Source of the DNA: an uncultured Actinomycetota bacterium
GTDB lineage: Bacteria; Actinomycetota; Actinomycetes; JACCUZ01
Assembly: GCA_963762865.1 (NCBI GenBank)
Contig: CAVXNC010000001.1
Coordinates: 47,787 to 111,786, forward strand
Length of the DNA: 64,000 nt
Direction of reading: 5' to 3'
Shown: in pieces, positions 5,476 through 51,382 of the stretch
Numbering within the stretch: position 1 is the first letter of the stretch
Layout: the number at the start of each line of letters is the position of its first letter
Translations under genes and position numbers: made by a program
The notes under the pieces: generated by a model
The model's input: the letters and a program-made list of their open reading frames with translations, nothing else
Databases searched by the model: none
What the model was told of the DNA's origin: nothing

Positions 5476-7474
5476 ATGACGCGGCCGCGGGGCTACCGGT
5501 ACGGCAGCTGGCACGAGGGGCCAGACCCGCTCGCCCCGCCCTACGACGTGCGGCGCGCCCTGGACCGCCTCGGTGACGACGTGCTCACCGGCTCCACGCC
5601 GCGCGACGCCCTGCGCCGGCTCCTGCGCCAGGGCATGGACGGCGACGGCCCGCGCGGTCTCGACGACATGCTCCGGCGGCTGCGCGAGCAGCGGAAGCGG
5701 CTGCGCGAGAGCGGCCGGCTGGACGGCACCCTGCAGGAGGTGCGCCGCCTGATCGACACCGCGGTCGGGCAGGAGCGGTCGGCGCTCTTCCCGGACCCCT
5801 CCGACGACGCGCGCTTCCGCGAGGCCACCCTCGACGCGCTGCCGTCGGACCCGGCCCGCGCCGTGCGCCAGCTGGACTCCTACGACTGGCGGTCGCCGGA
5901 GGCCGCGCAGACCTTCGAGCAGGTGAAGGACCTGCTGCGCCGCGAGGTGCTCGACACCCAGTTCCGGGGCATGAAGCAGGCTCTCGAGAATCCCGACCCG
6001 GCGGCCATGCAGCGCATCAAGGACATGCTGGCCGGCCTCAACGAGATGCTGGCGGCTGATGCCCGGGGTGAGCACACCCAGGAGCAGTTCGACGAGTTCA
6101 TGGCGGCGTACGGCGACATGTTCCCGGAGGACCCGCGCGACCTCGAGGAGCTGGTCGACCTGCTCGCCCGCCGGGCCGCCGCGGCCGAGCGGATGATGCA
6201 GTCGCTCACGCCGCAGCAGCGCGACGAGCTGGCCGCCCTGATGGCCGGCGCGCTCGAGGACATGGACCTGGCCAGCCAGATGTCCCAGCTCGGCGAGGCG
6301 CTGCGCAGCCGGCGACCGGACCTGGACTGGAGCGGCCGGGAGCGGGTTCGCGGCGAGCAGCCGCTCGGCGCGGGTGACGCGACGAGCGCGGTGCAGGACC
6401 TCGCCGACCTCGAGGAGCTCGAGGCGGCGGTCGGCCAGGACTACCCCGGCGCCAGCCTGGAGGACGTCGACGAGGAGGCGGTGCGCCGCGCGCTCGGCCG
6501 CCGGGCCGCCGACGACCTCAGTGAGCTGCGGCGGCTGGAGCGCGAGCTCGAGGAGCAGGGCTACGTCAACCGGACCGGGCGGCCGGCTGCAGCTGACCGC
6601 GAAGGCGATCCGGCGGCTCGGGCAGACCGCGCTGCGCAAGGTCTTCGCCGACCTGCACGCGACGGCGCGAGGCGGCCATGACGTGAACGACGCCGGCCAG
6701 GCCGGTGAGGTCACCGGCGCGAGTCGCCAGTGGCAGTTCGGCGACGAGCAGCCGCTCGACGTCGTGCGCACTCTCACCAACGCGGTGCGGGCCGGGCGGG
6801 CCTCGATCGGCCCTGACGTCACCCGCCGCGGCATCCGGCTGCGGACAGACGACTTCGAGGTGGCCGAGACCGACCGGCGCACGTCGGCAGCCGTGTGCCT
6901 GCTCGTCGACCTCTCCTACTCGATGGTGCTGCGCGACACCTGGGGCGCGGCGAAGGCGACCGCGCTGGCGCTGCACTCACTGGTCAGCGGGCAGTTCCCG
7001 CAGGACGCGCTCACCATCATCGGCTTCTCGTCGTTCGCCCGGACGCTGTCGGCCACCGAGCTCGCCGAGATGGACGCCGACTACGTGCAGGGCACCAACC
7101 TGCAGCACGCGCTGATCCTCGCCGGCCGCTTCCTCGACGAGCACCCGCAGGCCGAGCCGGTGGTGCTCGTGGTGACCGACGGCGAGCCCACCGCGCACCT
7201 GCTCCCGGGCGGGCAGCCGTGGTTCGCCTGGCCGCCGGAGCCGGAGACGATCGAGCTCACCGTGGCCGAGGTCGACCGGATGACCCGACGCGGCGCGGCA
7301 CTCAACGTCTTCGCCCTCGACGACGACCCGCGGCTGCTCGGTTTCATGCAGGAGCTCGCGCGCCGCAACGGCGGACGGGTCCTGCAGCCCGACCCGCGTC
7401 GCCTCGGGCAGTACGTCGTCAGCGACTACCTCTCGCGACGGTCCGGCGGGCGCCGGGGCCGTCGGGCCGGGTGA
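5476..7474 (+). pseudogene. von Willebrand factor A (VWA) domain protein, Rv0959-like, with an apparent +1 frameshift near 6575-6590
   Basis: The N-terminal ~365 aa are in ORF 5476..6681 and end ...LEEQGYVNRTG. The continuation, ...GGRLQLTAKAIRRLGQTALRKVF...VCLLVDLSYSMV...VVLVVTDGEPT (the VWA MIDAS-type motifs), is in ORF 6374..7474. Total length is 1999 nt, which is 1 mod 3. The shift falls in the run ccgggcggccgg. Confidence 0.65.
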
Positions 7475-8319
7475 CCGCCCCGCGGCTCTTCGGCGTCTCG
7501 GCCCGTGACGTTCCGGTGGTCGCCGTCATCCGCCGCGGACCGAGCAGCTGGTGCCAGCTCGGCCGCTGGACGGTCGGGGCGGAGCCGACGTACGAGCCGG
7601 GCTCCTGGCTGCGGGCGACGGTCTACCCGCAGCGCTGCGCGCTCTCACCGGACGGACGATGGCTGTCCTACTTCGCGCTCGGCGGTCCGGCCAGGTGGGC
7701 CGCCGGCGGCACGTACGTCGCCGTGTCCCGGCTGCCCTGGGCCCGCGCCCTGGCTGCGTGGGGCACCGGCGGCACCTGGACCCTCGGCGCGGAGTTCCGT
7801 GACGACCGGTCGGTGTGGGAGGTCGGTGACCCGGACGAGGGCGATCCCGCTGCCCTCCGGGAGCGCTACGGCTTGGGCTGGGTCCGTCCGGTGACGTACG
7901 CCGCGGAGCGCCGGGCCGGCTGGGTCGAGTCGCCGGCCTCCCCGCCCTACGACCCGGCCGACGTGTGGGAGATCCGCCGCGCCCCGCACATCGTCATGCA
8001 GCGGCCCCGGCCGGCCGGGCAGGAGGTCCTGTCGGTGCGCGGTGCGCTGGCCGCCTACCGCTCCGGCGACGCGCGGCGCTACGGGCCGCCGGACTACCGG
8101 CTCGACGACGAGCCGCTGCCCGGCGTCCAGTGGGCCGACTGGTCCCCCCACGGCGACCTGCTGGTGGCCACGACCGACGGCCGCCTGCAGGTCAGGCGGG
8201 TCGGGCAGGGCGACAAGGGCGGCAGCGGCGGCATCGGCGGCGCGGTCGGCTGGGAGACCGACCTGTCCGGGCTCGCGCCCGACCCGCAGCCGCCGCCTGC
8301 CGACGCCGACCGGTGGTGA
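7471..8319 (+). CDS. hypothetical protein (Trp/Gly-rich, no recognisable domain)
   Basis: The GTG start overlaps the VWA stop as GTGA. The 282-aa product runs VTAPRLFGVSARDVPVVAVIRRG...WLSYFALGGPARWAAGG... Its codon usage is consistent with neighbouring genes. Confidence 0.45.
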   Translation: MTAPRLFGVSARDVPVVAVIRRGPSSWCQLGRWTVGAEPTYEPGSWLRATVYPQRCALSPDGRWLSYFALGGPARWAAGGTYVAVSRLPWARALAAWGTGGTWTLGAEFRDDRSVWEVGDPDEGDPAALRERYGLGWVRPVTYAAERRAGWVESPASPPYDPADVWEIRRAPHIVMQRPRPAGQEVLSVRGALAAYRSGDARRYGPPDYRLDDEPLPGVQWADWSPHGDLLVATTDGRLQVRRVGQGDKGGSGGIGGAVGWETDLSGLAPDPQPPPADADRW

Positions 8320-8658
8320 CGGCCAGAGGTTGACGGCCGGGCCCCGCGCGGAAGCCCTCAGGCCGACGGTCCGACCTGCCGAGTACACTGGTGAGCAGCA
8401 ACCCACCCAGAGGTTGCCCGGAGCACGCCACGTTCGGCGTGCCCGGTCCGTTCACGGCGCAGCGTTGCGCCCAGCACAAAGGGCCCCCGAGGCGGAGCCG
8501 GCTATGGCCGGCCGAGCAGCCGCACCCCACCCGCACGGGTCGGGTTGCCTGGCCGGTGGTCCGGTGGGAGAGGAGACCGTCATGGTCGAGGACGACTACG
8601 GTCCTTGGGACGACTGACCCAGCCGCACGGCTGGTCGGTCCTCCGGGACAGACGACAC

Positions 8659-8692
8659 GACGCCCCGTCCGGCACCTGCCGGGCGGGGCGTC
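8659..8692. terminator. GC-rich stem-loop with nested palindromes between convergent genes; a candidate bidirectional terminator
   Basis: GACGCCCCG-tccggcacctgccggg-CGGGGCGTC forms a 9-bp outer stem. The loop contains a second palindrome, CCGGCAccTGCCGG. There is no U-tract, as is common for terminators in high-GC actinobacteria. Confidence 0.35.
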
Positions 8693-8737
8693 CGTGCGTC
8701 CAGGCCGGCGTTGCCTGGGCGCGCGCGACGGCGCCGC

Positions 8738-9331
8738 TCAGAGACCCGGCAGCGAGATGGTCACCGACGGCAGCGGCGGGAGCGGCAGCGTCGGCCCATG
8801 CGACGGGTCGTCGGTCGGCTCGGTCGGCGCGGTCGGCTCGGTCGACGCCGTGGGCTCGGACGTCGCGCTGACAGTGGGGTCGCCGGTCGGCTGGGAGGTC
8901 GGCTGGGCCGACGAGTCGCCGGTCGACCCGCCCGAGGCGGTGACCGAACCCGATCTCGGCGAGGTCGCAGTGCCGCCGGCCGACCCGCTGCCACCGGCAC
9001 CGGAGCCGACGCCAGCCGCACCGGCAGCGCTGGCAGAGTCGGGCTCGGCGGTGGGGACCGCGCTGGCCTCCGTCGTCGGCTGGGCCGACTCGGGGAAGCT
9101 CAGCAGCGTGGTGCGGCTCGGGCCGTCGGACCCGTGCGAGGTCGCCCCGGCGCTGCTCCCCGGACGACCGGTCCCGTCGCGCAGGGCGGCGCTGGTGAGC
9201 GGCCCGAGCAGGGCCACGGCGGCGACGGTGCCGCCCACGGCGAGCGGGACGGCTGCCTCGGCGGCCCGGGCGGGGCGCCCCCGGCGGCGGTGCCGGCCAC
9301 GGCGGCCGGGCGTTGTGCTGGACACGCGCAT
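8738..9331 (-). CDS. secreted/membrane-anchored low-complexity Ser/Thr/Pro/Gly-rich protein
   Basis: 197 aa from MRVSSTTPGRRGRHRRRGRPARAAEAAVPLAVGGTVAAVALLGPL, an Arg-rich N-terminus followed by a hydrophobic segment. Then comes an STPG-rich region with EPTASTEPTAPTEPTDDP repeats, encoded by degenerate ggtcggctc-type DNA repeats. Several overlapping ORFs exist here in other frames; this one was chosen because of its signal-anchor-like N-terminus. Confidence 0.4.
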   Translation of the reverse strand: MRVSSTTPGRRGRHRRRGRPARAAEAAVPLAVGGTVAAVALLGPLTSAALRDGTGRPGSSAGATSHGSDGPSRTTLLSFPESAQPTTEASAVPTAEPDSASAAGAAGVGSGAGGSGSAGGTATSPRSGSVTASGGSTGDSSAQPTSQPTGDPTVSATSEPTASTEPTAPTEPTDDPSHGPTLPLPPLPSVTISLPGL

Positions 9332-9564
9332 TGCTCCTTCGAGCGCCACCGGACGTACGCCCGCGCTGACCGCGGCCCCCGACGCGCCCCCCGGTGGATG
9401 GGCAGGGAACGGGAGACGACCGTACCGAATCACCGCAAAACGGACAGCACCCGGTGTGTCGGGGACCGTCGCCCCGCCCTCCCAACGACCCCGTGTCCCC
9501 GCAGGTCACGCGGCCCCCCGTCCCCGCCGAGCCCGGTCCGGCCCCCACGAATAGCCTGTGCCCG

Positions 9565-10785
9565 ATGTCACGGTTCTTCGGCTCGTTGCCCCGAGAGGTG
9601 ACGGTGCTCACCGCCGTGGCGTTCGCCGTGGCGGTGGGGTTCGGCGTGGTGGCCCCGGCCATCCCGGTCTTCGCGCGCGACTTCGGGGTGGGCCGGACCG
9701 CGGCCGGGGCCGTCATCTCCGCGTTCGCGTTCATGCGCCTGGTCTCGGCACTGGCCAGCGGCCGTCTGGTCAACCGGGTCGGCGAGCGCGTCGTCCTCGC
9801 GACCGGCATCGGCATCGTGGCGGTCAGCAGCGCGCTCGCGGGCCTCGCGCAGTCCTACACCCAGCTGCTCCTGCTGCGCGGCGTGGGCGGCGTCGGCTCG
9901 GCGATGTTCACGGTGTCGGCCATCTCGCTGCTGCTGCGGGTCGTCGATGCCGACCAGCGCGGCCGGGCAATGAGCATGTGGCAGACCGGTTTCCTCCTCG
10001 GTGCGATCGCCGGCCCGGCGATCGGCGGCCCGCTGACCGACATCTCGCTGCGCGCGCCGTTCTTCGTGTACGCCGCGACGCTGGCCGTCGCGGGCGGGAT
10101 CGGCATGCTCTTCCTCAGCCGCACGTCGCTGCACGACCGGGTCGACGCGACCTCTCCCGAGGACCACACGACGCTCGGTGCCGCCTTGCGCGTCTCCGGC
10201 TACCGGGCCGCCCTCACCGCGAGCCTGGGCAACGGGTGGGCGCTCTACGGCGTGCGGTCCTCGCTCATCCCGCTCTTCGTCACCGAGGGGATCGGCGCGT
10301 CCGGGACGTGGACCGGCATCGGCCTGCTGGTCTCCGCCGCCACGCAGGCCGGCGCGCTCCTGCTGGTCGGCAACTTCACCGACCGGGTCGGCCGCCGCCC
10401 CGGCATGATCGCCGGCGCCGCCCTCGGCATGCTCAGCCTCGGCGCCCTCGCCGTCCACGAGTCGCTGGGCGTCTACGCCGTCTCGATGGCGGTCTTCGGT
10501 GTCGCATCGGCCTTCCTCACGGTGGCCCCGAGCGCAACCGTCGGCGACGTGGTGTCCGGTCGAGGAGGCACGGTGGTGGCCGCCTTCCAGATGGCCGGCG
10601 ACGTGGGCGCCGTCGTGGGGCCGCTGCTCGCCGGCTGGCTGGCCGACAGCTACTCCTTCTCGGCCGCGTGGGGGGTGACCGCCGGCATCATGGCGGCCGC
10701 GCTGGTCATGGCCTTGTTGTCCACCGAGACGCGCCACCGGCCCTCGACGGCATCGCCCGAACCGGCCGCCGGCACCACCGGCTGA
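9565..10785 (+). CDS. MFS transporter
   Basis: 406 aa from MSRFFGSLPREVTVL, with 12 predicted hydrophobic segments. MFS-type motifs are GRLVNRVGERV and GNFTDRVGRRPG (the D-R-x-G-R-R loops). Confidence 0.85.
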   Translation: MSRFFGSLPREVTVLTAVAFAVAVGFGVVAPAIPVFARDFGVGRTAAGAVISAFAFMRLVSALASGRLVNRVGERVVLATGIGIVAVSSALAGLAQSYTQLLLLRGVGGVGSAMFTVSAISLLLRVVDADQRGRAMSMWQTGFLLGAIAGPAIGGPLTDISLRAPFFVYAATLAVAGGIGMLFLSRTSLHDRVDATSPEDHTTLGAALRVSGYRAALTASLGNGWALYGVRSSLIPLFVTEGIGASGTWTGIGLLVSAATQAGALLLVGNFTDRVGRRPGMIAGAALGMLSLGALAVHESLGVYAVSMAVFGVASAFLTVAPSATVGDVVSGRGGTVVAAFQMAGDVGAVVGPLLAGWLADSYSFSAAWGVTAGIMAAALVMALLSTETRHRPSTASPEPAAGTTG

Positions 10786-10795
10786 CCTGCTCCGC

Positions 10796-11629
10796 TCAGG
10801 CAGGCTGCTCCTCGAGGAAGTCGAGGACGACCGCAGCGAAGAGCGGCGAGACGCCGAGGTCGTAGTGGGTCGTGCCGGGGATGATCGCGAGGGCGTGACC
10901 GCCCTTGGGCCGGCCCTCCCCCGTCCACCCGCCGTCGCGCTGCCCGCCGTCGAGGAGCGCGAAGACCTCGACGTAGTGGCTGGGCGGCGCCATGTCGGCG
11001 TCGGCGGCGACGACCAGCGTCGGCACCTGCAGCCCGCGGACCTCCTCGGTGAGGTCGAAGTCGCGCGACATCGACTCGCCGATCTTGTCCAGCAGCCGAG
11101 GGAAGTCCTCGGGCCTCGGGGCCACGCGCTCGTAGAGCTCGTACATCGGTGTCCCCTTCAGGAACTCGGCGGCAGCCGCGTTGACCTGGCCCTGCTGCGC
11201 CAGCATCTCCGGGTAGATCGCATCCCGGCGGATGTTGGCCGAGGCCGACACCAGGCGACCGACCTTGTCGGGGTGGTGGATCGCGGTCATCATCGCCACG
11301 CCGCCGCCGAGGGAGTAGCCGACGACGTCCGGCCTGTCCAAGGCCAGGTGGTCGATCAGAGCGGCGATGTCGTCGGCCATCAGCCGCACGTCGATCGGCC
11401 GGTCGATGTCCGCGGTGCGGCCGTGGCCCTGCAGGTCCACAACGATGACCTGGTGCCGTTCGGACAGCGCGGGGAGCACCGGGCCGAACGTCTCCCCGGA
11501 CATCAGTCCGCCGTGCAGCAGGACCAGCGGGCTGCCGGACCCGTAGGTCGCGACCCACAGGTTGATCCCGTTGACCTCGACGTACCTGCCGGAGCCCTGC
11601 GCGTCGGTCGCCTGGTCGGTGGTGGTCAT
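10796..11629 (-). CDS. alpha/beta hydrolase fold protein
   Basis: 277 aa. It has the HGGLMSGETF oxyanion region, the nucleophile elbow GYSLGG, and C-terminal His/Asp residues. Confidence 0.85.
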   Translation of the reverse strand: MTTTDQATDAQGSGRYVEVNGINLWVATYGSGSPLVLLHGGLMSGETFGPVLPALSERHQVIVVDLQGHGRTADIDRPIDVRLMADDIAALIDHLALDRPDVVGYSLGGGVAMMTAIHHPDKVGRLVSASANIRRDAIYPEMLAQQGQVNAAAAEFLKGTPMYELYERVAPRPEDFPRLLDKIGESMSRDFDLTEEVRGLQVPTLVVAADADMAPPSHYVEVFALLDGGQRDGGWTGEGRPKGGHALAIIPGTTHYDLGVSPLFAAVVLDFLEEQPA

Positions 11630-11692
11630 CCCGTGCTCCTCAGGTCCAGTTGGTTGGTGCGCTGCCCGTCAGACCGTCGGGCCGGGCCGGAC

Positions 11693-13015
11693 TCATCGGT
11701 CGGCGAGCTGCCGCACCAGACGCGCGGCGGTGCCGGGGTGGTCGGCGCTGAGGAGTCCGGCGGCGGCGAGCACGTAGTCGCTGTCGACGACGGTGCGCGC
11801 ACCCTCGGGCACCGGCCAGCCGCCGGCCAGGTCGGCGGTCGCGGGTCGCAGCACCGCGGTGCGTGTCGCGTGGTCGGCATGGCGAAGCACGCCGCCCGAC
11901 CCGACCACCAGCACGACCTCGCGCAGGTCCTTGCCGCCCCGGCCGTGCCGGCGGAGCGCGACGGTCACGGCCAGCTCGGCCAGCCGGGCGTCGACTGCGC
12001 GCTCCGCGTCGTCGGCCGGGAGGAAGCCGGTGTCGCGGGCACGGCGCTCTGCCGACGTACGCAGCGAACGTTCCTCGTCACCGGAGACGAGCCGCTCGGC
12101 GGCGGCCGCATCGACGACACCGACGGCGCTCCACCGCATCCCGAGGTCACCTTCGACGGTGCGGCTGCGCCACATCACCTCGACGACCTCGCGCCGGAGC
12201 ACCGCGTCCTCGCCCTGCGGCGTCACCACCGAGTAGACGTCCGTCGTCGCACCGCCGACGTCGACGACGAGGACGTCACCGACGCCCGGCACGCCGTCCG
12301 CCCCGTCGGCGAGCACCTCGACACCGGAGAGCACGGCGTCCGGCGTCGCCGCGCGGACCAGCGCCGGGAAGTCGGCCCGGCGCGAGAGCCCCTTGCCGCC
12401 GATGACGTGGCGGATGAAGACGTCCCTGATCGCCGCGCGCGCGGGCTGCGGGTCGAGCCGGCCGATGACGGGCAGCACGTTGTCGGTCGCGACGACCGGC
12501 TTCCCGTTGCCGCGCAACAGGTCTGCGAGCTCGTCGCGCAGGTCCACGTTGCCGGCGAGCACGATCGGTACGTCGATCGTGGCGCCGGCGAGCACCCCCG
12601 CGTTGTGCGTCAGCACCTCGGCGTTGCCGCCGTCGGTCCCACCGACGAGCAGGAGTACGTCCGGGTCGGCCGCCTCGACCGCGGAGACGTCGTCGGGGGT
12701 GAGCCGGCCCGACGCGACGTGCACCACGCGCGACCCGGCCGACAGCCCGACCCGGTGGCCCGCCTCGGCTGTCACCTCGCGCTCGTAGCCGACGACGGCC
12801 AGCCGCAGACCGCCCCCGGCGCTGCTGCAGGCGAGCACCTCGACGTCGTCGCCGGCACCGAGCAGCGCCCGGCACTCGTCGACACCGTCCATCACGTCGG
12901 TGCCGATCGTGGTCGGGTGCGACGCCGTGCCGAGCAGCAGGCCGCTGCCGAGCTCGACGTGCGCTGCCTTCGTGAAGGTCGACCCGACGTCGACGCAGAC
13001 GACGGTGCGCGACAC
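11693..13015 (-). CDS. MutL-family (glutamate mutase L-like) protein
   Basis: 440 aa. It has an N-terminal VCVDVGSTFTKAA ASKHA-type ATPase fold motif, typical of MutL/DUF-type proteins. Its start abuts the upstream PLP-enzyme gene. Confidence 0.6.
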   Translation of the reverse strand: MSRTVVCVDVGSTFTKAAHVELGSGLLLGTASHPTTIGTDVMDGVDECRALLGAGDDVEVLACSSAGGGLRLAVVGYEREVTAEAGHRVGLSAGSRVVHVASGRLTPDDVSAVEAADPDVLLLVGGTDGGNAEVLTHNAGVLAGATIDVPIVLAGNVDLRDELADLLRGNGKPVVATDNVLPVIGRLDPQPARAAIRDVFIRHVIGGKGLSRRADFPALVRAATPDAVLSGVEVLADGADGVPGVGDVLVVDVGGATTDVYSVVTPQGEDAVLRREVVEVMWRSRTVEGDLGMRWSAVGVVDAAAAERLVSGDEERSLRTSAERRARDTGFLPADDAERAVDARLAELAVTVALRRHGRGGKDLREVVLVVGSGGVLRHADHATRTAVLRPATADLAGGWPVPEGARTVVDSDYVLAAAGLLSADHPGTAARLVRQLADR

Positions 13016-15088: not shown

Positions 15089-15151
15089 CAGAGCACGCCG
15101 CCGGAATCCCGGTACCGACCCCGTCGTTGGAAAGGGCACAGGAGGTCACAC

Positions 15152-15847: not shown

Positions 15848-16868
15848 CCGGGTCGTCGCGCACCTCGCAGCGCGCCCGGCTACCGCTTGCCCGCGATCAC
15901 CGGCGTGACATTTTCGGCCTGACGATGTCGGATTGGCCGTTCGACGTTCGTTGACATGGTGACGGCAGACACCGGGTCCGCCCGAGCAAGGGGAGCAGAC
16001 ATGCCCGAGTACCTCATCTACTTCAACCAGCAGTGGGTGGGGGACCACACCGAGGAGTGGTTCCGCGGGCGCGGGCCGCTCGCGAAGGCGGTCGTGGACG
16101 AGATCAAGGCCGCCGGGGAGTACCTCTTCGCCGGGGGCCTGGAGGAGGACGGCCCGGTCTTCAGCGCCGACGCCACGAGCGGCACGCTGACGTTCACCGA
16201 CGGGCCCTTCGTCGAGACCAAGGAGTTCCTGGGCGGTCTGACCGTGGTGGACGTGGCCGACGAGGAGGCTGCCAGGATGTGGGCCGGCAAGATCGCGGAA
16301 GCGTGCGGGTGGCCCCAGGAGGTTCGCCGGTTCGGGCGGCTGCCGGACGTCCCCACCGAGGTCGAGCCGCCCGAGTCCTGACCGGTCGTCGCGCACCTCG
16401 CAGCGCGCCCGGCTACCGCTTGCCCGCGATCACCGGCGTGACATTCTCGGCCTGACGATGTCGGATTGCCCGGTCGACGTTCGTTGACATGGTGACGGCA
16501 GACAGCGGGTCCGCCCGAGCAAGGGAGCAGACATGCCCGAGTACCTCATCTACTTCAACCAGCAGTGGGTGGGTGACCACACCGAGGAGTGGTTCCGCGG
16601 GCGCGGGCCTCTCGCGAAGGCGGTCGTGGACGAGATCAAGGCCGCGGGGGCGTACGTCTTCGCCGGGGGCCTGGAGGAAGAGGACGGGCCGGTCTTCAGC
16701 GCCGACGCCACGAGCGGCACGCTGACGTTCACCGACGGGCCCTTCGTCGAGACCAAGGAGTTCCTGGGCGGTCTGACCGTGGTGGACGTGACCGACGAGC
16801 AGGCTGCCAGGATGTGGGCCGGCAAGATCGCGGAAGCGTGCGGCTGGCCCCAGGAGGTCCGCCGGTTC
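15800..16868. repeat. Tandem segmental duplication of about 533 bp (2 copies, about 99% identical), spanning the msrA 3' end, the intergenic promoter and a yciI-like gene
   Basis: The two copies start at 16001 and 16533 with identical upstream sequence (ccgggtcgtcgcgcacctcgcagcgcgcccggctaccgcttgcccgcgatcaccggcgtgacatt...gacatggtgacggcagaca) and differ by a few SNPs and one 3-nt indel. The junction sits after codon 111 of copy 1 (about 16333). Confidence 0.75.
16001..16381 (+). CDS. YciI-like (YCII-related domain) protein, copy 1, with a chimeric C-terminus
   Basis: 126 aa: MPEYLIYFNQQWVGDHTEEW...DGPFVETKEFLGGLTVVDVADEEAARMWAGKIAEA, a YCII-domain pattern. The last 15 aa (GRLPDVPTEVEPPES) are read from duplicated msrA 3'-end sequence; compare msrA ...[10 protein letters not shown]. 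Confidence 0.75.
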   Translation: MPEYLIYFNQQWVGDHTEEWFRGRGPLAKAVVDEIKAAGEYLFAGGLEEDGPVFSADATSGTLTFTDGPFVETKEFLGGLTVVDVADEEAARMWAGKIAEACGWPQEVRRFGRLPDVPTEVEPPES

Positions 16869-16934
16869 AAGCCAGTCCCGAGATTCAGGGCTGAGTCGGC
16901 TCAGCCGACCTCGGTTACGTCCACCACCTCGTAG
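16533..16934 (+). CDS. YciI-like (YCII-related domain) protein, copy 2, with the presumed original C-terminus
   Basis: 133 aa. It is about 97% identical to copy 1 up to ...EVRRF, then continues KPVPRFRAESAQPTSVTSTTS. Confidence 0.8.
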   Translation: MPEYLIYFNQQWVGDHTEEWFRGRGPLAKAVVDEIKAAGAYVFAGGLEEEDGPVFSADATSGTLTFTDGPFVETKEFLGGLTVVDVTDEQAARMWAGKIAEACGWPQEVRRFKPVPRFRAESAQPTSVTSTTS

Positions 16935-24504: not shown

Positions 24505-24674
24505 CCGGTCGTGACCTCCCCCAGTGGTTCGAGACCCTCGAGAACGGCCCTGGCCTGCTGCGGTTCGAGGAGCGCGTCAACTGGCTGCGCGACGAGCACG
24601 GCATCTCCCACGGACACGCGTCGGCGATCGTGCACGAGCACGACCTGCGGCGCGGCGCCCGGCGGCACGCCTGA
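24444..24674 (+). CDS. DUF4287 domain protein
   Basis: 76 aa. LPQWFETLE...VNWLRDEHGISHGHASAIVHEH matches the DUF4287 pattern (...W...G.GHGHA.A.V). Confidence 0.6.
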   Translation: MSLNHSEATHQQLLDRVPTATGRDLPQWFETLENGPGLLRFEERVNWLRDEHGISHGHASAIVHEHDLRRGARRHA

Positions 24675-25078
24675 CCCCCGAGGCAGCTCGGGACTTCCTG
24701 CGCGCCAACCACCGCGCCGTCCTCGCGACGTTCCGCTCCGACGGCCGCCCGCAGCTCTCCCCGGTCGGTGCCGGCGTCGACGCCGCGGGCCGGGTCATCG
24801 TCTCCACACCCGGGACGACCGCGAAGGCCCGCAACCTGCGGCGGGACCCGCGCGTCAGCGTCTGTGCCTTCAGCGACGGCTTCTACGGCGGCTGGGTCCA
24901 GGTCGAGGGGACCGCGGAGATCGTCGAGCAGCCCGAGTCGGTCGAGCTGCTCGTCGACTACTACCGGCGGCTGGCCGGCGAGCACCCCGACTGGGACGAG
25001 TTCCGGACCGCGATGGTCGACGAGGGCCGTGTCCTGGTCCGCTTCGCTATCGAGCGCTGCTCCGGGCTGCTCGCCTAG
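24524..25078 (+). CDS. PPOX-class (pyridoxamine-5'-phosphate-oxidase-like) probable F420-dependent enzyme; start unresolved
   Basis: The conserved core begins LTPEAARDFLRANHRAVLATFRSDGRPQLSPV...NLRRDPRVSVC at about 24671, immediately after the DUF4287 stop. The only upstream canonical start in frame, ATG 24524, would overlap DUF4287 by 150 nt. Confidence 0.6.
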   Translation: MVRDPRERPWPAAVRGARQLAARRARHLPRTRVGDRARARPAARRPAARLTPEAARDFLRANHRAVLATFRSDGRPQLSPVGAGVDAAGRVIVSTPGTTAKARNLRRDPRVSVCAFSDGFYGGWVQVEGTAEIVEQPESVELLVDYYRRLAGEHPDWDEFRTAMVDEGRVLVRFAIERCSGLLA

Positions 25079-27247: not shown

Positions 27248-28589
27248 TCAGGTGCCGAGCAGCAGGTCGCGGGTCCGCGGCAGGCCGCTCGCCCCGCCGG
27301 GACCCGGCCGCACCGCCAGGACCTGGTTGACCCCGATCCGGTTGGCCTCGAAGGAGAGCGCCGAGCCGGCCATGTAGAGCTGCCACACCCGCGCACGACC
27401 CTCGGACGTCAGCGCGACCGCCTGGTCCCACGACGACTGCAGGTTGGTGACCCAGCTCCGCAGGGTCAGGGCGTAGTGCTCCCGCAGCGCCTCGACGTCG
27501 CGGACCTCGAACCCCACGTCCTCGAGCACGCCCACCGTCGTCGCCAGGGGCAGCAGCTCGCCGTCGGGGAACACGTAGGCCTCGATGAAGGAGGTGCCGG
27601 CCCGCGAGGGTCCTGGCCGTCGGGAGATCTGGTGGTTGAGCAGCCGGCCACCGGGTGCAAGGAGCCCGTGCAGCCGCCGGGCGTACTCCGCGTAGCCGGC
27701 CTCGCCGACGTGCTCCGCCATCCCGATGCTGGAGATGACGTCGTAGGGGCCGTCGTCGACGTCCCGGTAGTCCTGGACGCGGATCTCGACCCGGTCCGCG
27801 ACCCCGGCACCGGCCAGCCGCTCCCGGGCCAGCGCGGCCTGCGGCTCGGACAGCGTGATGCCGACGCCGCGGATGCCGTAGGTGGTCGCGGCGTGCAGCA
27901 GCATCGAGCCCCACCCGCAGCCGACGTCGAGCATCCGCTTGGAGCTCGCCGTCGACCTTCAGCCCGAGCTTGCGGCAGACCAGGTCGAGCTTGTCGCGCT
28001 GCGCCCCCTCGAGCCCGTCGCCGGGTCCGGACGCGCCTTCCTCGCGCCAGTAGGCGCAGGAGTAGACCATCGACTCCCCGAGCACGAGCCGGTAGAAGTC
28101 GTTGCCGACGTCGTAGTGGTGCGTGACCGACGAGCGGTCGCGGTCCCGGCTGTGGCGTCGCCCGGCGACGACTGCCTCTTCCGGCGGTGGTGCAGGTGCG
28201 CGGCCGATGCCGCCGAGGCGGGCCACGAGTGTGGTCAGCTCGGCCCGCTGCTTGACGGTCAGCGAGCGCGCGTGCGGACGGTCGCCGTCGTCGAGCGGCA
28301 GCGCGCGCAGGATGTCGTAGACGTCGCCCGCGAAGTGCAGGTCGCCACTGATGTACGCCCGGGCCAGGCCCAGCTCGTTGGGCTCGTGCGCCAGTCGCCG
28401 GACCGCGTCCGGCGACTCGACCTCGAGGAGCGGGAAGCTCTCATCACCAGCGGTCGAGCCGTCCCACGCCCGCAGGCGTAGCTGCGGCTGGGTGCCGAGC
28501 ACGAGGGTCAGGATGCGAAGCAGGCTCGCCGCGACCGACGTGCTCTCGCCGGCCCGGCGCTGCCGACCGAGCCCGGTCTGTGTTCTCAC
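27248..28589 (-). pseudogene. cfa: cyclopropane-fatty-acyl-phospholipid synthase (SAM-dependent methyltransferase) with an apparent frameshift near 27935-27950
   Basis: The N-terminal ~215 aa (...HYDVGNDFYRLVLGESMVYSCAYW...KLDLVCRKLGLK) are in ORF 27138..28589. The SAM motif LDVGCGWGS and the rest are in ORF 27248..27934. Length is 1342 nt, which is 1 mod 3. Confidence 0.7.
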
Positions 28590-44914: not shown

Positions 44915-44918
44915 CTCC

Positions 44919-46615
44919 TCAGCGCCGCGACGTGGTCCTCGGCGTGACCCGGTAGAGCCGCCAGTCCCGGCCTTCCACGACAGGGTTGCGGAACTCCTTG
45001 ACGAGGGTCGCGATGCCGGCGCCGTCGGCGTAGAGGGACGGATGGGCGACGGTGAGCGCGTCGTAGCCGGCCTGCGCCGACACCAGCAGGTAGCGGACCC
45101 GGCCGAGCCGCGGGTCGGCGAGCAGCTTGGGGAAGTCCCGGTCCGGCGTGATCACGAACTGCCGGGCGTGGTCCGAGGCCAGGAAGATCTCGAAGCCGGA
45201 GGCCAGATCCATCAGGACGCTGCCCTCCGGCAGGTGGCGGGCGTCCAGGTATGCGGCGACCCTGCGGTCCGTGCCTGCCCACCCCAGCCGGCTGGTCGGT
45301 TCGTCGCGACCTTCGAGGCTGGCCAGCACGCTGCCGCCCTGCGGCACGTCTTCTGGGGCGAGCCGGGCGTCGGAGACCGCCCGCGGGACGGTCACCCACG
45401 GGGGCACCGCCACCGCGAGGACGGCGAGCGTGGCCGCGACGGGAGCGAGCAGCCGCAGCAGGCGACGACCGCGCAGTGGCCCTGGCAGCCCCTGGGCCAG
45501 GTGCCCGGCAGCGAGGACGCCGAGCGGGACGACGTAGACCTGGAACCGCAGCCAGCCGAAGGTCTGCCCGCTCAGGGCCAGGCCGGCAGAGATCGCCACG
45601 GTGCCACCGAGCACTGCCAGTGCGGCCGCGAAGCGGATGTCACGTCGGACCAGCGCGAGCAGCACCGCTGCCACGACGAGCGCCCAGGCGACCGGCTGCA
45701 AGGCCGCCATCTGGTCCAGCACCGGCGGCAGCGCACCTTCCCCGCCGTACATCGTCCGCTGGGCGGAGTTGCCGTACTGCGAGCTGAGCTGCTCGAAGGG
45801 GTGCCCCACGACGACGAAGCTGGTGACGGCGAACAGCACAGCCCCTACGACGGCCGGCAGCGCGACCACCAGCACATCGCACACCGCCGCATCGACACGG
45901 GCCCGCCGACGACCCGCCGTGCGGACGGCCGTGACGGTCGCGACGAGCAAGGTCGCTCCCGCGACCGCACCGACCGCCTCGTAGCGCGTGAGGTACGCGA
46001 GCGCGAGGGCGAGCCCGGCGTGGGCAAGGTCCGTCGAGTGGTCGTGGCGCAGCCACCGGGCGAGCGATTTGGTCGCAGCGAGAAGCCACAGGAGGAGCAG
46101 CGCCTCGGTCATGCCGTTGGCGCCGTACAGCAGCACGATAGGGGTGGGCCGCGAACGAGACCACCAGACCCCAACGCGCGGCCCTGGCCCACACCCAGGT
46201 CCTGGAGGTAGCCGCGGACGACGACCGCTCCGGCCGCCGCAGCCACCGCGCTCTGCAGGCTGATGACGAGGCCGGTTTCCATGATCCCCGGGACGACCCG
46301 CCCGACCAGCACGAGAGGCAGCAGCAGCAGCGACGGCAGGGGGCTCCACACGAAACCCAGGGCGGCGAGCTTGGGGTCCCGGCCGTCGAGGACCGCCTTG
46401 GCGTTGGCGACCCGGGAGACGCTGTCACCCATCAGCGAGTCGAATCCCACGACCAGCACGAGCGCGAGGACGAGCTCGACGGTGAGGACGGTCGCGAAGA
46501 CCACCCACGGCTCCGTCCACCTTCGGCGACGGTGCTCCGCACCGGTGGTGCCGACAGGGCCCCGGTCGGGGACCTCCGCCTGGGGGGTCCTCGTCGGCAG
46601 CTGGAGCAGGGTCAT
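44919..46615 (-). pseudogene. polytopic membrane protein, putative GT-C-type glycosyltransferase, with apparent frameshift(s) near 46130-46170
   Basis: The N-terminal ~150 aa (MTLLQLP...FATVLTVELVLALVLVVGFDSLMGDSVSRVANAKAVLDGRDPKLAALGF...) are in ORF 46109..47515. The rest (...IVLLYGANGMTEALLLLWLL..., many transmembrane segments plus a ~200-aa C-terminal soluble domain) is in ORF 44919..46349. A third frame bridges the two for about 15 codons. The ATG overlaps the GT2 stop as ATGA. Length is 1697 nt, which is 2 mod 3. Confidence 0.5.
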
Positions 46616-48087
46616 CGCCGCTCCGCGGGGCTGGCGTGGTCGAGACCGTGCACCGTCTTCTCCCAGAACGACGGCGCCGTGACCATCTGCACCGCGGCCT
46701 TCGCCGCGGCCGCCGACATCAGCACCCAGTAGGCGGGCAGCAGCAGCAGGCTCCTGGCCAGCGATGCCCGACCGCACTCGCGGGCCGCGAGCAGCGAGCA
46801 GTAGACCGAGCCGGTGAGCCCGCCCAGCCAGACGAGCATCTCGAGGTGGTAGAGCGGGCTCGGGAAGATGGCTGCCAGCTGCGACGAGCCGGAGAGCAGG
46901 TAGAACAGGCTCAGCGTCCACAGCACCGGGTTCAGCAGCGCGAGCAGCGGCGTCCCGCCGACGAAGAGCAGGAAGCCGGCCGTCCCCCGCGGGCCGAGCT
47001 CGTCGACCAGACGACGGGGGTCGCGGGTGTGCACCAGCAGGGTCTGCAGATAGCCCTTGTACCAGCGACTGCGCTGCTTGACCCAGTTGACGACGTCGCT
47101 GTTCGCCTCCTCCAGCGTCACGCTGTCGAGCACCCGCACCCCGAAGCCCGCGCGGGCCAGCCGCACGCCGAGATCCGCGTCCTCGGTCACGTTGTACGGG
47201 TCCCAGGCGCCGATGCGCTCGAGCACCTTGCGGCGGATGTGGTTGGACGTGCCCCCCAACGGGATCGGGTGGCCGGCCCGGACGAGCCCGGGCAGCCAGA
47301 ACCGGAACCACACGTCGTACTCGTTGGTGAACCAGCGGGTGAGCAGGTTCTGCTCGGCGTTGTGGTAGGCCAGCCGGGCCTGCAGGCAGGCCACGTGCGG
47401 CGGCAGCCTGCTGAAGGCGACGGCGGCGCGGCGCAGCTGCAGCGGGTCCGGCCGGTCCTCCGCGTCGTAGATCGTCACCAGCGAGCCGCGGGCGCACATC
47501 AGGCCGACGTTGCACGCCTTGGGTTTGGTCCGTGGCTCGCGGACGGCGATGCCGACGGGCGTGACGTAGGGCGGCAGGTCCAGGTCGACGAGAGCTTCGA
47601 ACGTCTCCTCGTCGTCGTCCTCGACGAGGAGAAGCACCTCGAGACGGTTTCGTGGGTAACTGATGCGGTCGATCTCCTCGAGCACCCGGCCGACCATCGT
47701 GGGCTCGCGGTAGACCGGCACGAGCACCGTGTAGACGGGCAGGTTGCGTCGAGGGAAGCCGCGCGCTTCAGCGTCACTGACCGACTCCATCTCGACGCTG
47801 CGCAACGAGCCGGTGAAGAGCACGACTCGGTGCCACAGCACCGCGGCGTGGGCGGCGGTCACGAGTGCCACCAGCACGGTCGCGGTGGCGAGCGGCACGA
47901 CGGCGAAGCCGATGAACAGGACAAGGCCGACGCAGACGACCGTCAGACGCTGCACGCGCGACCAGCCGCGCTGCGCGGACAGGCCGGGATTCCTGCGGTC
48001 GAGCGACTCGCTGGCCAGCTCGGCGATCGCATCCGGCGACAGCGAGCGGACTCCCCGGACCCGGGCCCGCGCCGGCGAGAGCCTCAC
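46612..48087 (-). CDS. processive family-2 glycosyltransferase (cellulose/chitin/hyaluronan-synthase-like)
   Basis: 491 aa. It has 2 N-terminal transmembrane helices, a GT-A catalytic domain with the DAED and QRSRWYKG (QxxRW) motifs, and about 4 C-terminal transmembrane helices. Confidence 0.8.
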   Translation of the reverse strand: MRLSPARARVRGVRSLSPDAIAELASESLDRRNPGLSAQRGWSRVQRLTVVCVGLVLFIGFAVVPLATATVLVALVTAAHAAVLWHRVVLFTGSLRSVEMESVSDAEARGFPRRNLPVYTVLVPVYREPTMVGRVLEEIDRISYPRNRLEVLLLVEDDDEETFEALVDLDLPPYVTPVGIAVREPRTKPKACNVGLMCARGSLVTIYDAEDRPDPLQLRRAAVAFSRLPPHVACLQARLAYHNAEQNLLTRWFTNEYDVWFRFWLPGLVRAGHPIPLGGTSNHIRRKVLERIGAWDPYNVTEDADLGVRLARAGFGVRVLDSVTLEEANSDVVNWVKQRSRWYKGYLQTLLVHTRDPRRLVDELGPRGTAGFLLFVGGTPLLALLNPVLWTLSLFYLLSGSSQLAAIFPSPLYHLEMLVWLGGLTGSVYCSLLAARECGRASLARSLLLLPAYWVLMSAAAAKAAVQMVTAPSFWEKTVHGLDHASPAERR

Positions 48088-48854
48088 GGACCGTCCGCCC
48101 GGAGCCGGACCACGCCGTCGCTGCTGACGGAACGGCTGTCCTGCAGGGTGACGAGCCCGCGACCTACCGTCGTCAGCAGCCGACCGACTGCCGCGACGCG
48201 GTCTCCGGTCGTGGCGTTGTGCGTCACGACCGACTTCACGACAGGTGAAGGGACACCGCCGGACGAGTCGAGCACCGGCACGACGCGCTGTCGGGTGTCG
48301 ACCATCAGCAGGACCACGCGCTCGTACTCGGTGCGACCGTCGGCACTGGTGACCGGGCGTTCCCAGTGCAGTGCCGTCCAGTCCCTGCCGTCACGCGGGT
48401 CGAAGTACGAGAGCAGTGTGCCGCGGACGGCCGGGCTGAGCCGTACCTCGCGGGACGAGCGGACGTCGAAGCCGTGGAACGAGTAACACGCCTCGATGCT
48501 GTAGGTCCTCATCCGCAGCAGGCTCGGCGTGGTGACGACGTCCGTCAGGATCGAGGCGGACTGCCGGTCCCCGAGCAGCTCGCCGCTGATGGTGCCTGGC
48601 GACAGCGAGAGCAGACTGCGATGCCACGTGGACGCCGACCCGAAGTACTGGGTTGCCCACGGGATGGAGCCGAGCGCTGCAGTCGAGAAGCCGGGCAGAG
48701 CCACCGGCTGGTCCGCGTACGACGCGACGTCGGCGCCACCAACGGGGTCGCCGAGCCCGGCAACAGCTGCCAGCCTGCTGTTCGCTCCCGCGCCGACGAC
48801 GACTCCCACGACCAGCACAGCTGCCCCTAAGACGGGCACCGGTCGCCGTGCCAC
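48084..48854 (-). CDS. exosortase-associated EpsI-like periplasmic protein (putative)
   Basis: 256 aa. It has an N-terminal transmembrane/signal segment RRPVPVLGAAVLVVGVVVGA, then a beta-rich soluble domain. It sits between the exosortase and the GT2 gene and overlaps both by 4 nt. Confidence 0.4.
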   Translation of the reverse strand: MARRPVPVLGAAVLVVGVVVGAGANSRLAAVAGLGDPVGGADVASYADQPVALPGFSTAALGSIPWATQYFGSASTWHRSLLSLSPGTISGELLGDRQSASILTDVVTTPSLLRMRTYSIEACYSFHGFDVRSSREVRLSPAVRGTLLSYFDPRDGRDWTALHWERPVTSADGRTEYERVVLLMVDTRQRVVPVLDSSGGVPSPVVKSVVTHNATTGDRVAAVGRLLTTVGRGLVTLQDSRSVSSDGVVRLRADGP

Positions 48855-49836
48855 CTGGCGCCGGGTGGCTGCAGGCGTCGCCGGCTCGCGCCGGCCGGCG
48901 AATGCGAGGCCGAAGTCTTCGCAGCCGCCAGAGCATCACCGCGATCCCGATGTTGCTGAGCACCAGCCCGAGCACTGGGTGCAGGACCTCCATGGCCGCT
49001 GCGAGTCCCCACTGCCCGGCGACGAGGAAGAGCACCAGGACCCGCAGCAGGTTCAGCATCCAGGCGAGCGCGGTACCGCAGATCAGCCAGCAGAGCTTCC
49101 GCCTGGCCGGCCCCTGGGTGAGGCCCATCAGCAGGGACCCGACCACCAGGTAGCTCACCGTGCCGTTGAGACCGGCACAGGCGCTCGCGACGCTGAGCCG
49201 GATCGCCTCCCCGCCGTGGTCCACGGTGAACAGCGAGCCGTCCGAACCGGCGGCCTGCTGGGCGAGCCCCAGCGGCGCGGCCAGTGCGGCGACCGCGGAG
49301 GTCGTGGCCGTGGCCACCTGGTCCTGGACCAGGGAGAGCAACCGGGACCAGGGCATCGGCCAGGCGAGGAACAGCATTGCGAGCCCGAAGCGGACACGCC
49401 ACATGGTCCGCACCCCGAGAAGGACCGCCGTCGCGCCGGCCGCGAAGAGCGGCAGCAGCAGGAGATCGAGACGCAGCAGCCAGAAGGTGTCCCCGAGCCG
49501 GTGCTGCAGGACCAGCTGGCCGACGAGGGACACGGCGATCAGCGGGCCGCCGACGATCAGGTCCAGCTGACGGTCCTCGATGTCCGGCTCGTGCACGCGT
49601 CGCCGGGCGCGGACGGCTGCGATGACCACCGCCCCGCCCGGGACCAGCCCGAGGTAGGCGAGCGGCGAGTCGATGAGCAGGGCCTCGCCGAGCTGGCGGA
49701 GCGTGACGTGGAAGGCCACGACGCAGGCGAGGACCACAGCGGCTCCGAGAGCCGCCGGTCGCCAGGCCGGCTCGTCGCGCGCGGGCGTCCCGACAGCACC
49801 AGCTGTCGGGACGCCCGCTCCCTGGGGGGGACTCAC
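48855..49836 (-). CDS. exosortase-family transpeptidase; the 3' end is unresolved because the ORF continues to 48391 in a frame overlapping the EpsI-like gene
   Basis: The N-terminal 308 codons (49836..48912) are polytopic. They carry the conserved Cys in VASACAGLNG, the Arg in LNLLRVLVLF and the Asn in LSNIGIAV, which is the exosortase/archaeosortase triad context. Beyond ...MLWRLRRL the frame is Arg-rich noise. This is either an exosortase-EpsI fusion with an indel, or an overlapping stop. Confidence 0.6.
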
Positions 49837-49854
49837 TGGTCGCGGAACCCCTCG

Positions 49855-50461
49855 TCAGGCTGCGAGGGCCGGACCACCGCTGGCGCGGCGGCGCCAGAGG
49901 AAGAACCCGAGCGGCGACGAGAGCTCCCGAGACCGGAAGCAGGATCGCGATGGACGCCTCGGGAATGACCGGCGGCGACGAGATGTCGACGCACAGGATG
50001 TTGCTCTTGTCGGTGAAGCCGACCGCTGAGGCATCCGTTCCGGACACTGCTGCCCGGTCGCACACCGTGTCGTCCGGGCTCGCCTCGACGGTGAAGGTCG
50101 TCGTCCCCGACGAGCCGGTCCCGTCCGCGGTGAAGTCGACGTCCTTCTCGTCCGAGCCGACGAGCGTCTCGCCGTTGTAGGCGCCGTTGCCGTCGGAGTC
50201 GATCCAGATGCAGTCGCGGAGGCGGTACGAGCCGGGCGCCCGGTCGACGTAGACGGAGTACGTGAGCGTGTAGGTCCCGTCACCGTTGTCGACCAGGCTG
50301 ACAAGACTCTTGTCGGCCAGGTTCTCCTCGCCGGCCTGGCCGGACAGGACGCCGGCGCAGGACGTGGTGGAGTCCTCGGCGCTGGCGGGTCCCGCCAGCA
50401 GGGTGGCGCTGCCCAGGACCGTGGCAAGCACGGCCAGCAGCGCGATGAGCAGTCGTCTCAT
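49855..50461 (-). CDS. secreted PEP-CTERM-like exosortase cargo protein (signal peptide plus C-terminal PEA-TM-RRR sorting signal); the C-terminus needs a 1-nt frame change
   Basis: It has the signal peptide MRRLLIALLAVLATVLGSATLLAGPASA and a ~170-aa Thr/Gly/Asp-rich domain with 4 Cys. It then reads ...SSPPVIPEASIAILLPVSGALVAA. The adjacent frame supplies ...LGFFLWRRRASGGPALAA followed by a stop at 49855. Length is 607 nt, which is 1 mod 3. Confidence 0.5.
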
Positions 50462-50593
50462 CGAACCTCCTCAGTGTCGGCCGCGCCGGTGACTCGCAGC
50501 TATCGACCTGCAGCGACCACTTCGCGGTGTGTGTGACGGACTGTCCGCCGTGAGGAGGCGCGCGGACCATGCCCTGTTGGTACTGCCGGGACC

Positions 50594-50608
50594 AGTACGT
50601 ACTAGTAC
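50594..50608. promoter_or_regulatory. overlapping perfect palindromes AGTACGTACT / GTACTAGTAC in the AT-richer divergent intergenic region
   Basis: The sequence ccAGTACGTACTAGTACgaa lies 135-150 bp upstream of the cargo gene on the minus strand and about 160 bp upstream of the response-regulator gene on the plus strand. Confidence 0.3.
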
Positions 50609-50763
50609 GAACAACAACAGCCCGTCGTGACCGTTAGACGGATAGTGAAAGTTCGCATCTGTCCTGGTCAGGGCGGCTTTCTCGGGTGACACTGACGCAA
50701 CGCGTTCGGGTCAGGCATCGGCCCACGGGTACCAACGGGGGCCCATGGGGGGGTAAACCGAGC

Positions 50764-51382
50764 ATGAGACGCGCGACCGTCCGCTGTGTCGTCGCGGACG
50801 CTTCGCCGCTGGTCGTCGCCGGCCTGCGCACCGTCTTGGTCGAGCACGGGTTCGGCACGCCGGTCGCCGAGGCCGATCAGCCGCGACGCGCCGTCGAGGT
50901 GACCCGTCGGGTCAAGCCCGACATCCTCCTGTGCGGTCTCGGCCCGCTCGCCGCCACGTTCAGCATCGCCGAGCAGGTCGCCCCGGTCCCGGTCCTGGCG
51001 CTTGTCTGGACCTGCACCCGGTCGCGAGGCAGCGGAGGCCATCACCGCCGGAATCGGCGGACTGGCGCTCAAGGGCGCGCCGGTGCAGCACCTCGGTACG
51101 GCGATCGCCGCAGTGATGGGCGGAGCAACGCCTGTCCCACGGGCGGCGAGCTACGAGGCACCCGTCGAGCTCCGCGGCGTGCAGCGCCTCACGAGTCGCG
51201 AGGCCGCCGTCGTCGAGCTGGTGTCCAGCGGCCTGAGCAACACCCAGATCGCCGGCCGGCTGGGCATCGCGCCGCAGACCGTCAAGAACCACCTCCGCTC
51301 CGCGATGGGCAAGCTCGGCGCCCACAGCAGGGTCGAGGTGTGTCTCTGGACGGGCAAGCGGCCGGCCATGGAGCTCGCCTGA
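50764..51382 (+). pseudogene. NarL/LuxR-family response regulator (REC plus HTH) with an apparent frameshift near 50995-51005
   Basis: REC N-terminus MRRATVRCVVADASPLVVAGLRTVLVEHGF...DILLCGLGPLA...PVPVLAL is in ORF 50686..51390. REC C-terminus plus the LuxR HTH (...AITAGIGGLALKGAP...LTSREAAVVELVSSGLSNTQIAGRLGIAPQTVKNHLRSAMGKLGA) is in ORF 51002..51382. Length is 619 nt, which is 1 mod 3. Confidence 0.65.

Follow-up and report, generated by a model that had tools for sequence, protein, structure and literature searches.

Frame breaks in six genes of the window

The DNA analysed here is a window of 64,000 nucleotides from a 153,694-bp contig of an uncultured actinomycete, and six of its genes change reading frame before their product is complete. 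Alignment of the window DNA with relatives located seven single extra bases in these six genes. They are given below in window coordinates, together with the one gene of the exosortase module that is unbroken, and the extra base is set in brackets within its context.

5476..7474, plus strand: VWA / Rv0959-like protein gene, 665 aa after repair; extra G at 6577, ACC[G]GGCGG
27248..28589, minus strand: cyclopropane-fatty-acyl-phospholipid (CFA) synthase gene, 446 aa after repair; extra base at 27946, on the gene strand GGCG[A]GCTCC
44919..46615, minus strand: GT-C / PMT_2-like membrane glycosyltransferase gene, 564 aa after repair; extra bases at 46185, GCC[A]GGG, and 46136, ATC[G]TGC
46612..48087, minus strand: GT2 glycosyltransferase, 491 aa; the sole unbroken gene of the module
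48084..49737, minus strand: exosortase fused to an EpsI-like domain, 550 aa after repair; extra base at 48916, GAAG[A]CTTC
49855..50461, minus strand: secreted cargo protein, 201 aa after repair; extra base at 49911, GCCG[C]TCGG, within the C-terminal sorting tag
50764..51382, plus strand: NarL/LuxR-type regulator with a degenerate receiver domain, 205 aa after repair; extra G at 51026, TCGC[G]AGG

Removal of exactly these seven bases yields open reading frames of 665, 446, 564, 550, 201 and 205 aa without internal stops. Five of the six have the same length as in relatives; the exception is the VWA protein, which in its closest relative, contig L094, has 668 residues, the difference of three residues being due to in-frame indels. 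The two extra bases of the GT-C gene are only 49 nt apart. The GT2 gene served as an internal control.

A sequence-only reading had proposed five of these frame changes, and GC3 frame plots together with homology confirm that in all five genes successive parts of the protein sit in different frames. Its arithmetic on gene lengths modulo three was likewise correct: each gene has a single extra base, except the GT-C gene with its two. The positions it assigned were accurate in part: the bases at 6577 and 27946 fall within its intervals (6575-6590 and 27935-27950), and at the GT-C gene 46136 lies inside 46130-46170 and 46185 is 15 nt outside. For the cargo and the regulator the breaks are real but were misplaced, at 49885-49900 instead of 49911 and at 50995-51005 instead of 51026, the latter about 20 nt off. 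What had been recorded as an oddity, an exosortase frame running without a stop into the EpsI-like gene, proved to be a further break in a sixth gene, at 48916, as the exosortase and EpsI parts form one fused open reading frame in 42 of 44 orthologous loci.

Comparison with relatives and sister assemblies

Base 6577 of the VWA gene is absent from two short-read relatives, L094 (95% nucleotide identity) and L095, and after repair the protein matches a 668-aa protein at 97% identity along its whole length. The family comprises thousands of single-chain homologues of about 660 aa in actinomycetes. In the CFA synthase the Pfam CMAS domain is split, with positions 1-61 in one frame and 66-273 in another, while the six 446-aa members of its 90% cluster have ...LGLQVDGGSKRMLDVGCGWG, and base 27946 is missing from the long contig L083. 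The unbroken 564-aa GT-C protein of L085 spans three frames of the window in a tblastn search, the positions of the two sites being taken from DNA alignments, whereas the adjacent GT2 protein is encoded in one frame with 97.6% amino acid identity to L085.

L085 also carries the exosortase-EpsI protein as an open reading frame of 550 aa, and base 48916 is absent both there and in L084. The exosortase matches Pfam Exosortase_EpsH (PF09721), and among NCBIfam models its match is limited to the generic signature TIGR04178. The cargo ends in a sorting tag of the form VIPEAS-helix-RRR that contains position 49911; its 201-aa relatives P0043 and P0044 end in ...GALVAVGFFLWRRRASGGPALAA, the extra base is absent from L085 and L084, and cargo-like tags are present in 36 of 80 distant loci. 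In the NarL-like regulator Pfam places the GerE HTH in the second frame. The 205-aa regulator of L085 spans two window frames, base 51026 is absent from L085 and L084, and after repair the protein can be aligned with NarL-family models over its entire length. Two further candidates were discarded: an apparent two-frame arrangement at YciI is a gene duplication, and what looked like base 46185 in L084 was, on close reading, a different local error of that contig.

None of the seven bases occurs in any relative, be it the short-read contigs L085, L094 and L095, the long contigs L083 and L084, or the members of the 446-aa and 201-aa clusters. A search of about 15 billion proteins placed each of the truncated products VWA_a, CFA_b and cargo_a on one contig only, and the protein of the unbroken neighbour prs is found on other contigs as well. 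A scan of JGI metagenomes for both versions of the cargo site, carrying the extra base or lacking it, gave no match and found no sequence of this lineage.

Sister assemblies of the same population are far more heavily affected. In the Flye-style ENA contigs contig_62819 and contig_63561 the prs, rplY, ppc, mfd, eno and thiolase genes are fragmented. Measured against the window, these two sister long contigs, L083 and L084, contain 118 insertions of one base, of which 76% lie outside homopolymers. Those errors of L084 that could be checked against two agreeing sequences resemble the ones in the window, for example TCCGCG[C]TCGAGG. Note that the sister contigs also have deletions, with a ratio of insertions to deletions of about 2.5:1 overall and about 1:1 in the verified subset.

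Indel spectrum and selection

All seven events are insertions, without a single deletion, and every break requires the same +1 shift; their density is about one per 10 kb. Six of the seven neither duplicate an adjacent base nor extend a homopolymer, the VWA site at 6577 (GG to GGG) being the only event of the homopolymer type. We found no motif common to the seven contexts and no slippery run in them. This speaks against one part of an earlier suggestion, according to which consensus errors would be tied to a specific sequence context such as GC homopolymers or GGCGG-type runs, even though the error reading as such is supported. What the sites do have in common is a type of error that is abundant in the sister long-contig assemblies of the same population and, for five of the seven, their location in the exosortase island.

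As the window lineage is diverged by about 3%, a plain count of substitutions is uninformative on decay, and we used the split into nonsynonymous and synonymous changes (N/S) instead. The N/S of window-specific changes comes to 21/53 in the segments downstream of the breaks and to 28/72 in the upstream segments plus GT2 (Fisher p = 1), against a neutral expectation of about 2.5. The GT2 gene by itself gives 8/20, and the VWA gene 6/23 with 2/13 downstream of its break. Apart from the frame breaks, no stop codons were found in the broken genes. Selection thus looks unrelaxed after the breaks, with the proviso that this test rules out old decay only and would not register an inactivation so recent that neutral divergence has stayed below about 0.5%.

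Clustering in the exosortase island

Five of the seven sites lie inside 4.9 kb of the exosortase island (P = 0.003), where they strike four of the five genes of one functional operon, and the flanking ppc and mfd genes are unbroken. The mismatch between lineages is 0.5-4% in the island against 14-18% in the adjoining 5' end of ppc, and the island has a history of its own. The module is patchily distributed, with hosts in Actinomycetota and Chloroflexota; a close homologue was not found in species-representative genomes, the best match having 58% identity.

In its composition the island resembles exosortase / PEP-CTERM systems, in which EpsH/XrtA is accompanied by EpsI, glycosyltransferases and a LuxR-type regulator such as EpsA: here too we find an exosortase-family protein, an EpsI-like domain, GT2 and GT-C proteins and a LuxR-type regulator. 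The cargo C-terminus, consisting of a PE-x motif, a hydrophobic helix and an arginine cluster, is likewise similar to PEP-CTERM, although the island tag reads (I/V/T)PE(A/V)(P/S) in place of PEP. The exosortase scores far below the cutoff for all named Xrt subfamilies and, unlike in those systems, is fused to EpsI.

The sequence-only reading had emphasised a different pattern, namely frame breaks in accessory genes next to intact housekeeping genes. The long housekeeping genes are indeed unbroken, but as a statistical contrast this is weak. Core genes make up about 23 kb of the 64 kb. With seven independent events the probability that none of them strikes a core gene is about 0.04; it rises to about 0.26 when the five clustered ones are treated as a single locus. 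The expectation that random indels would have hit the housekeeping genes it named fares no better, with about 1.7 events expected there and a probability of about 0.15 for none. At least 25 clearly accessory genes of the window are unbroken, and the family of the broken VWA gene is very widely conserved. The genuine non-randomness is spatial.

Origin of the extra bases

We consider it likely, with a probability of roughly 0.8, that the seven breaks are single-base insertion errors in a metagenome-assembled consensus and do not reflect pseudogenisation; in the organism itself, an uncultured actinomycete of high GC content, all six genes are most likely unbroken. The source was, we infer, an assembly of the long-read type. 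Residual indels of such assemblies, which the IDEEL test quantifies and tools such as proovframe aim to correct, share with the window their single-base size, their density, their restriction to one assembly, the splitting of genes into two frames, the restoration of the frame by removal of one base and the much worse state of sister assemblies of the same population. In line with this reading, indels in long-read consensus sequences are stated to yield frameshifted gene calls, worst in low-coverage bins (PMC9262707). The window differs in that only one of its seven sites lies in a homopolymer, that all are insertions and that they cluster in one island.

Several of these differences count against consensus error. 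Published nanopore consensus errors are mostly homopolymer indels (PMC9262707), unlike those of the window. Because deletions occur in the sister contigs too, seven insertions out of seven are only moderately likely under their error profile (P about 0.01 to 0.1). The substitutions of the window look biological, and their low N/S argues that consensus quality in the island is not poor overall. Finally, a cluster that matches one operon in four of its five genes is also expected from the decay of a dead operon.

For the clustering we propose that local consensus quality is poorer in the island, which would explain why five errors pile up there. The exosortase island may be strain-variable and recombining, and this variation could lower local read depth or haplotype purity and lead to a worse consensus than in the core genome. 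On this view the clustering would be caused by local coverage or strain mixture. Reference-guided frameshift correction that spares well-known genes does not account for the pattern, as genes without a Pfam family are unbroken and the VWA gene, with its thousands of homologues, is broken.

The foremost alternative, which we regard as improbable, is a genuine and very recent pseudogenisation in which the exosortase/EPS module has been inactivated in this population and is starting to collect frameshifts, with the CFA synthase and the VWA protein lost independently. Decay of operons by pseudogenisation is known from recently host-restricted bacteria such as Mycobacterium leprae, and there is a likeness in that several genes of one accessory and patchily distributed unit are broken beside unbroken housekeeping neighbours, and in that the breaks stand in the deposited record. 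Relaxed selection, stops, deletions and slippage-type events are nevertheless missing from the picture: a nonsynonymous excess is absent even from segments that would no longer be translated. A natural indel spectrum would be marked by slippage in repeats and by deletions no rarer than insertions, and Mira, Ochman and Moran reportedly found in 2001 that bacterial pseudogenes are biased toward deletion. Seven insertions without a deletion, six of them not of the slippage type and two only 49 nt apart in one gene, run contrary to this. The wide conservation of the VWA family and the restriction of the lesions, truncated products included, to a single assembly also speak against decay. The earlier proposal that accessory functions are being pseudogenised is thus unsupported.

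Somewhat less probable still is a mixture, in which one or two breaks are real, for instance a founding lesion of the module, and the others are consensus errors. Nothing sets individual sites apart, and the VWA site, as the sole homopolymer-type event, could differ in origin. Against this, all seven are alike in direction, size and confinement to one contig, and none has independent support. Programmed +1 recoding, by ribosomal frameshifting or transcriptional slippage, would give full-length proteins from the sequence as written and fits the uniform direction of the shift, but it is effectively refuted by close relatives, which lack the sites: orthologues as near as 94-97% need no extra base to read these proteins in a single frame. 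The sites also have no common motif and no slippery run.

If consensus error is the right reading, the result matters mainly as quality control. Taken at face value, the breaks would lead an annotator to report six pseudogenes and a "decaying exosortase module" in this contig, although all six genes probably work, and the exosortase-EpsI fusion would go unseen. Residual assembly errors can cluster in a strain-variable accessory island, outside homopolymers, and mimic selective gene decay. Error and decay can be told apart by a simple comparison of lineage-specific synonymous and nonsynonymous changes on the two sides of each break, and of the indel spectrum with the one seen in sister assemblies. 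Were the insertions real after all, a wild actinomycete population would just have silenced its exosortase island, CFA synthase and a conserved VWA protein by a burst of non-slippage +1 insertions, which we think unlikely and which would imply an unusual, locally insertion-prone mutational process.

Start codons of pth and PPOX

The starts of pth and PPOX, for which the sequence-only reading had found no canonical codon, are not lesions. Each gene has an in-frame CTG that overlaps the upstream stop as CTGA, and both probably use this CTG as their start. In pth the CTGA arrangement is identical in the short-read relative L081.

Seven inserted bases in six genes

Because the G+C content of the window is 70-76%, spurious long ORFs occur in all six frames. 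True coding frames were therefore picked by third-position GC frame plots and a frame-segmentation model, and each suggested break was then checked by homology. An uncultured actinomycete from soil is indicated both by the gene order (glmU-prs-rplY-pth ... mfd ... eno) and by the top-ranking relatives with a name, which are Motilibacter, Sporichthyaceae and Nocardioidaceae-labelled MAGs. Lesions were located by DNA alignment of the window with related contigs.

Related contigs
L085: MEGAHIT-style short-read contig, 94.4% identity to window 52735-44595
L094, L095: short-read contigs spanning the VWA gene
L081: short-read contig spanning prs-pth
L086: short-read contig spanning window 6.8-24.7 kb
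L083, L084: two Flye-style long contigs

The five genes for which the sequence-only reading had proposed frame changes are all truly broken, as evidenced by frame plots, homology and DNA alignment, and their exact positions can now be given. A break in the exosortase-EpsI fusion is added to these, and in total the alignments reveal seven window-specific single-base insertions.

Window-specific insertions (position, gene, plus-strand context with the extra base in brackets)
6577, VWA, GGACC[G]GGCGG
27946, CFA synthase, GGAGC[T]CGCCG
46136, GT-C, CAGCA[C]GATAG
46185, GT-C, GGCCC[T]GGCCC
48916, exosortase-EpsI, CGAAG[T]CTTCG
49911, cargo, CCCGA[G]CGGCG
51026, NarL-like regulator, GTCGC[G]AGGCA

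In the CFA synthase, positions 1-61 of Pfam CMAS match in one frame and 66-273 in another, and the exosortase and EpsI-like domains form a single ORF in 42 of 44 orthologous loci. Note that the two exceptions, L019 and L039, are MAG contigs of long-read style (names of the form contig_N), and for this reason a frameshift artefact of similar type is probable in both. Once just these seven bases are deleted, each gene reads as one ORF (665, 446, 564, 550, 201 and 205 aa), identical in length to that of relatives in five of the six genes; the repaired VWA protein is 3 aa below the 668 aa of L094, owing to in-frame indels. Exact-sequence look-up retrieved full-length close relatives (446-aa CFA synthases, 201-aa cargo proteins), and in L085 the module is wholly intact (regulator 205 aa, cargo 201, exosortase-EpsI fusion 550, GT2 491, GT-C 564). 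The same look-up found the shortened products VWA_a (401 aa), CFA_b (228 aa) and cargo_a (544 aa) in a public protein collection, each on one contig only (153,694 bp; NCBI and ENA), so that the breaks belong to the deposited record and not just to this copy.

Consensus error or decay

We consider the seven insertions to be artefacts, with a probability of about 0.8. Genuine pseudogenisation, one of two explanations offered earlier, is not supported, as the insertion spectrum, uniqueness, selection and sister assemblies all favour error; of the other, systematic consensus errors in specific contexts, the error part is supported, but the sites share no common sequence context. Natural one-base indels mostly arise by slippage in runs, and bacterial pseudogenes typically show a deletional bias. 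Here all seven events are insertions. In six of them the added base differs from both its neighbours, and the two in GT-C are separated by only 49 nt. None of the extra bases was found in any relative or other assembly compared, by DNA alignment or exact look-up.

The best argument for a real, very recent decay of the exosortase operon is that the break cluster coincides with this one operon: five of the seven sites fall inside 4.9 kb (P = 0.003), a 25- to 30-fold density over the rest of the window. The solid non-random signal is spatial. The housekeeping genes named as spared in the sequence-only reading (~15 kb) would escape with P ~ 0.15, and core genes, which make up ~23 kb of the 64 kb, with P ~ 0.04 for seven independent hits or P ~ 0.26 if the five clustered hits count as one locus. 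Many plainly accessory genes are intact (ABC ATPase, FIST, GNATs, DLH, DUF885, LuxR-TPR, desaturase, TetR, MFS, JmjC and others). Proteins of short-read relatives follow one window frame for 19/19 genes in 6.8-24.7 kb and 5/5 in 56.0-59.6 kb, and all other window genes with a Pfam family match its profile essentially end to end. In the former segment two YciI-family paralogues stand in tandem (16001-16348 and 16533-16901), with a single gene in L086.

Long-standing decay is excluded by the substitutions assigned to the window in three-way comparison, a test that does not cover a very recent event. Nonsynonymous to synonymous counts in broken genes are strongly synonymous-biased (2/11, 3/17, 17/41 and 19/36; 8/20 in the intact GT2). 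With real shifts, translation would not reach the segments 3' of the breaks, but the counts there are 21/53 versus 28/72 upstream and in GT2 (Fisher p = 1; neutral ratio ~2.5); for VWA they are 6/23, with 2/13 past the break.

Consensus error is seen in the sister assemblies. In L083 and L084 the prs, rplY, ppc, mfd, eno and thiolase genes are in fragments, and, compared with the window, the two contigs hold 118 one-base insertions, of which 76% are outside homopolymers; those L084 errors that could be verified by two agreeing sequences closely resemble the window's insertions. Long-read consensus indels are known to produce frameshifted gene calls, with low-coverage bins faring worst, but are ascribed mostly to homopolymers (PMC9262707), unlike the insertions found here. 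The breaks are of low interest as biology and modestly useful as a cautionary example.

The exosortase island

Read from its genes, the island at 44919-51382 is a coherent exosortase system, comprising a LuxR-type regulator with a degenerate receiver, cargo, exosortase-EpsI fusion, GT2 and GT-C. The module is patchy, and no species-representative genome holds a homologue above 58% identity. Mismatch between lineages is 0.5-4% in the island versus 14-18% at the adjoining ppc 5' end, and judged by these values the two have separate histories. Metagenome coverage of such a strain-variable island would be lower or mixed, and this could degrade the consensus locally and may account for the clustering of the breaks.

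In NCBIfam the exosortase falls outside the named Xrt subfamilies and matches the generic signature TIGR04178 alone. ORFs with (T/I/V)PE(A/V)P, a hydrophobic helix and RRRR in this order at the C-terminus occur in 36 of 80 distant loci, from Acidimicrobiales, Chloroflexi and Mycolicibacterium, and the island may represent an undescribed exosortase subfamily with its sorting signal. The NarL-like regulator (50764-51382) has ADAS where an acidic pair is usual and LCGL in place of the motif with the phospho-acceptor Asp, and Pfam Response_reg does not match. As the protein is conserved intact (205 aa) in L084 and L085, it is probably phosphorylation-independent.

The first 1.2 kb of ppc is unusually divergent, with N/S near 1, in contrast to the neighbouring island. 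Near its 5' end 8 codons (24 nt; 51512-51535) are duplicated in tandem, imperfectly and in frame. This duplication is absent from L084 and L085 and is the sole further indel in the 8.1 kb common to the window and L085.

Starts of pth and PPOX

Two genes lack ATG, GTG or TTG before the conserved N-terminus:
57049-56413, minus strand, pth
24671-25078, plus strand, PNPOx-family gene (PPOX)

These starts had been taken to point the same way as the frameshifts, but they are no lesions: each gene has an in-frame CTG just before the conserved N-terminus. As this codon overlaps the TGA stop of the preceding gene as CTGA in both cases (rplY to pth, DUF4287 to PPOX), the arrangement suggests translationally coupled initiation at CTG. 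The pth overlap is the same in the short-read relative L081, where the gene caller fell back on an internal ATG (154 aa).
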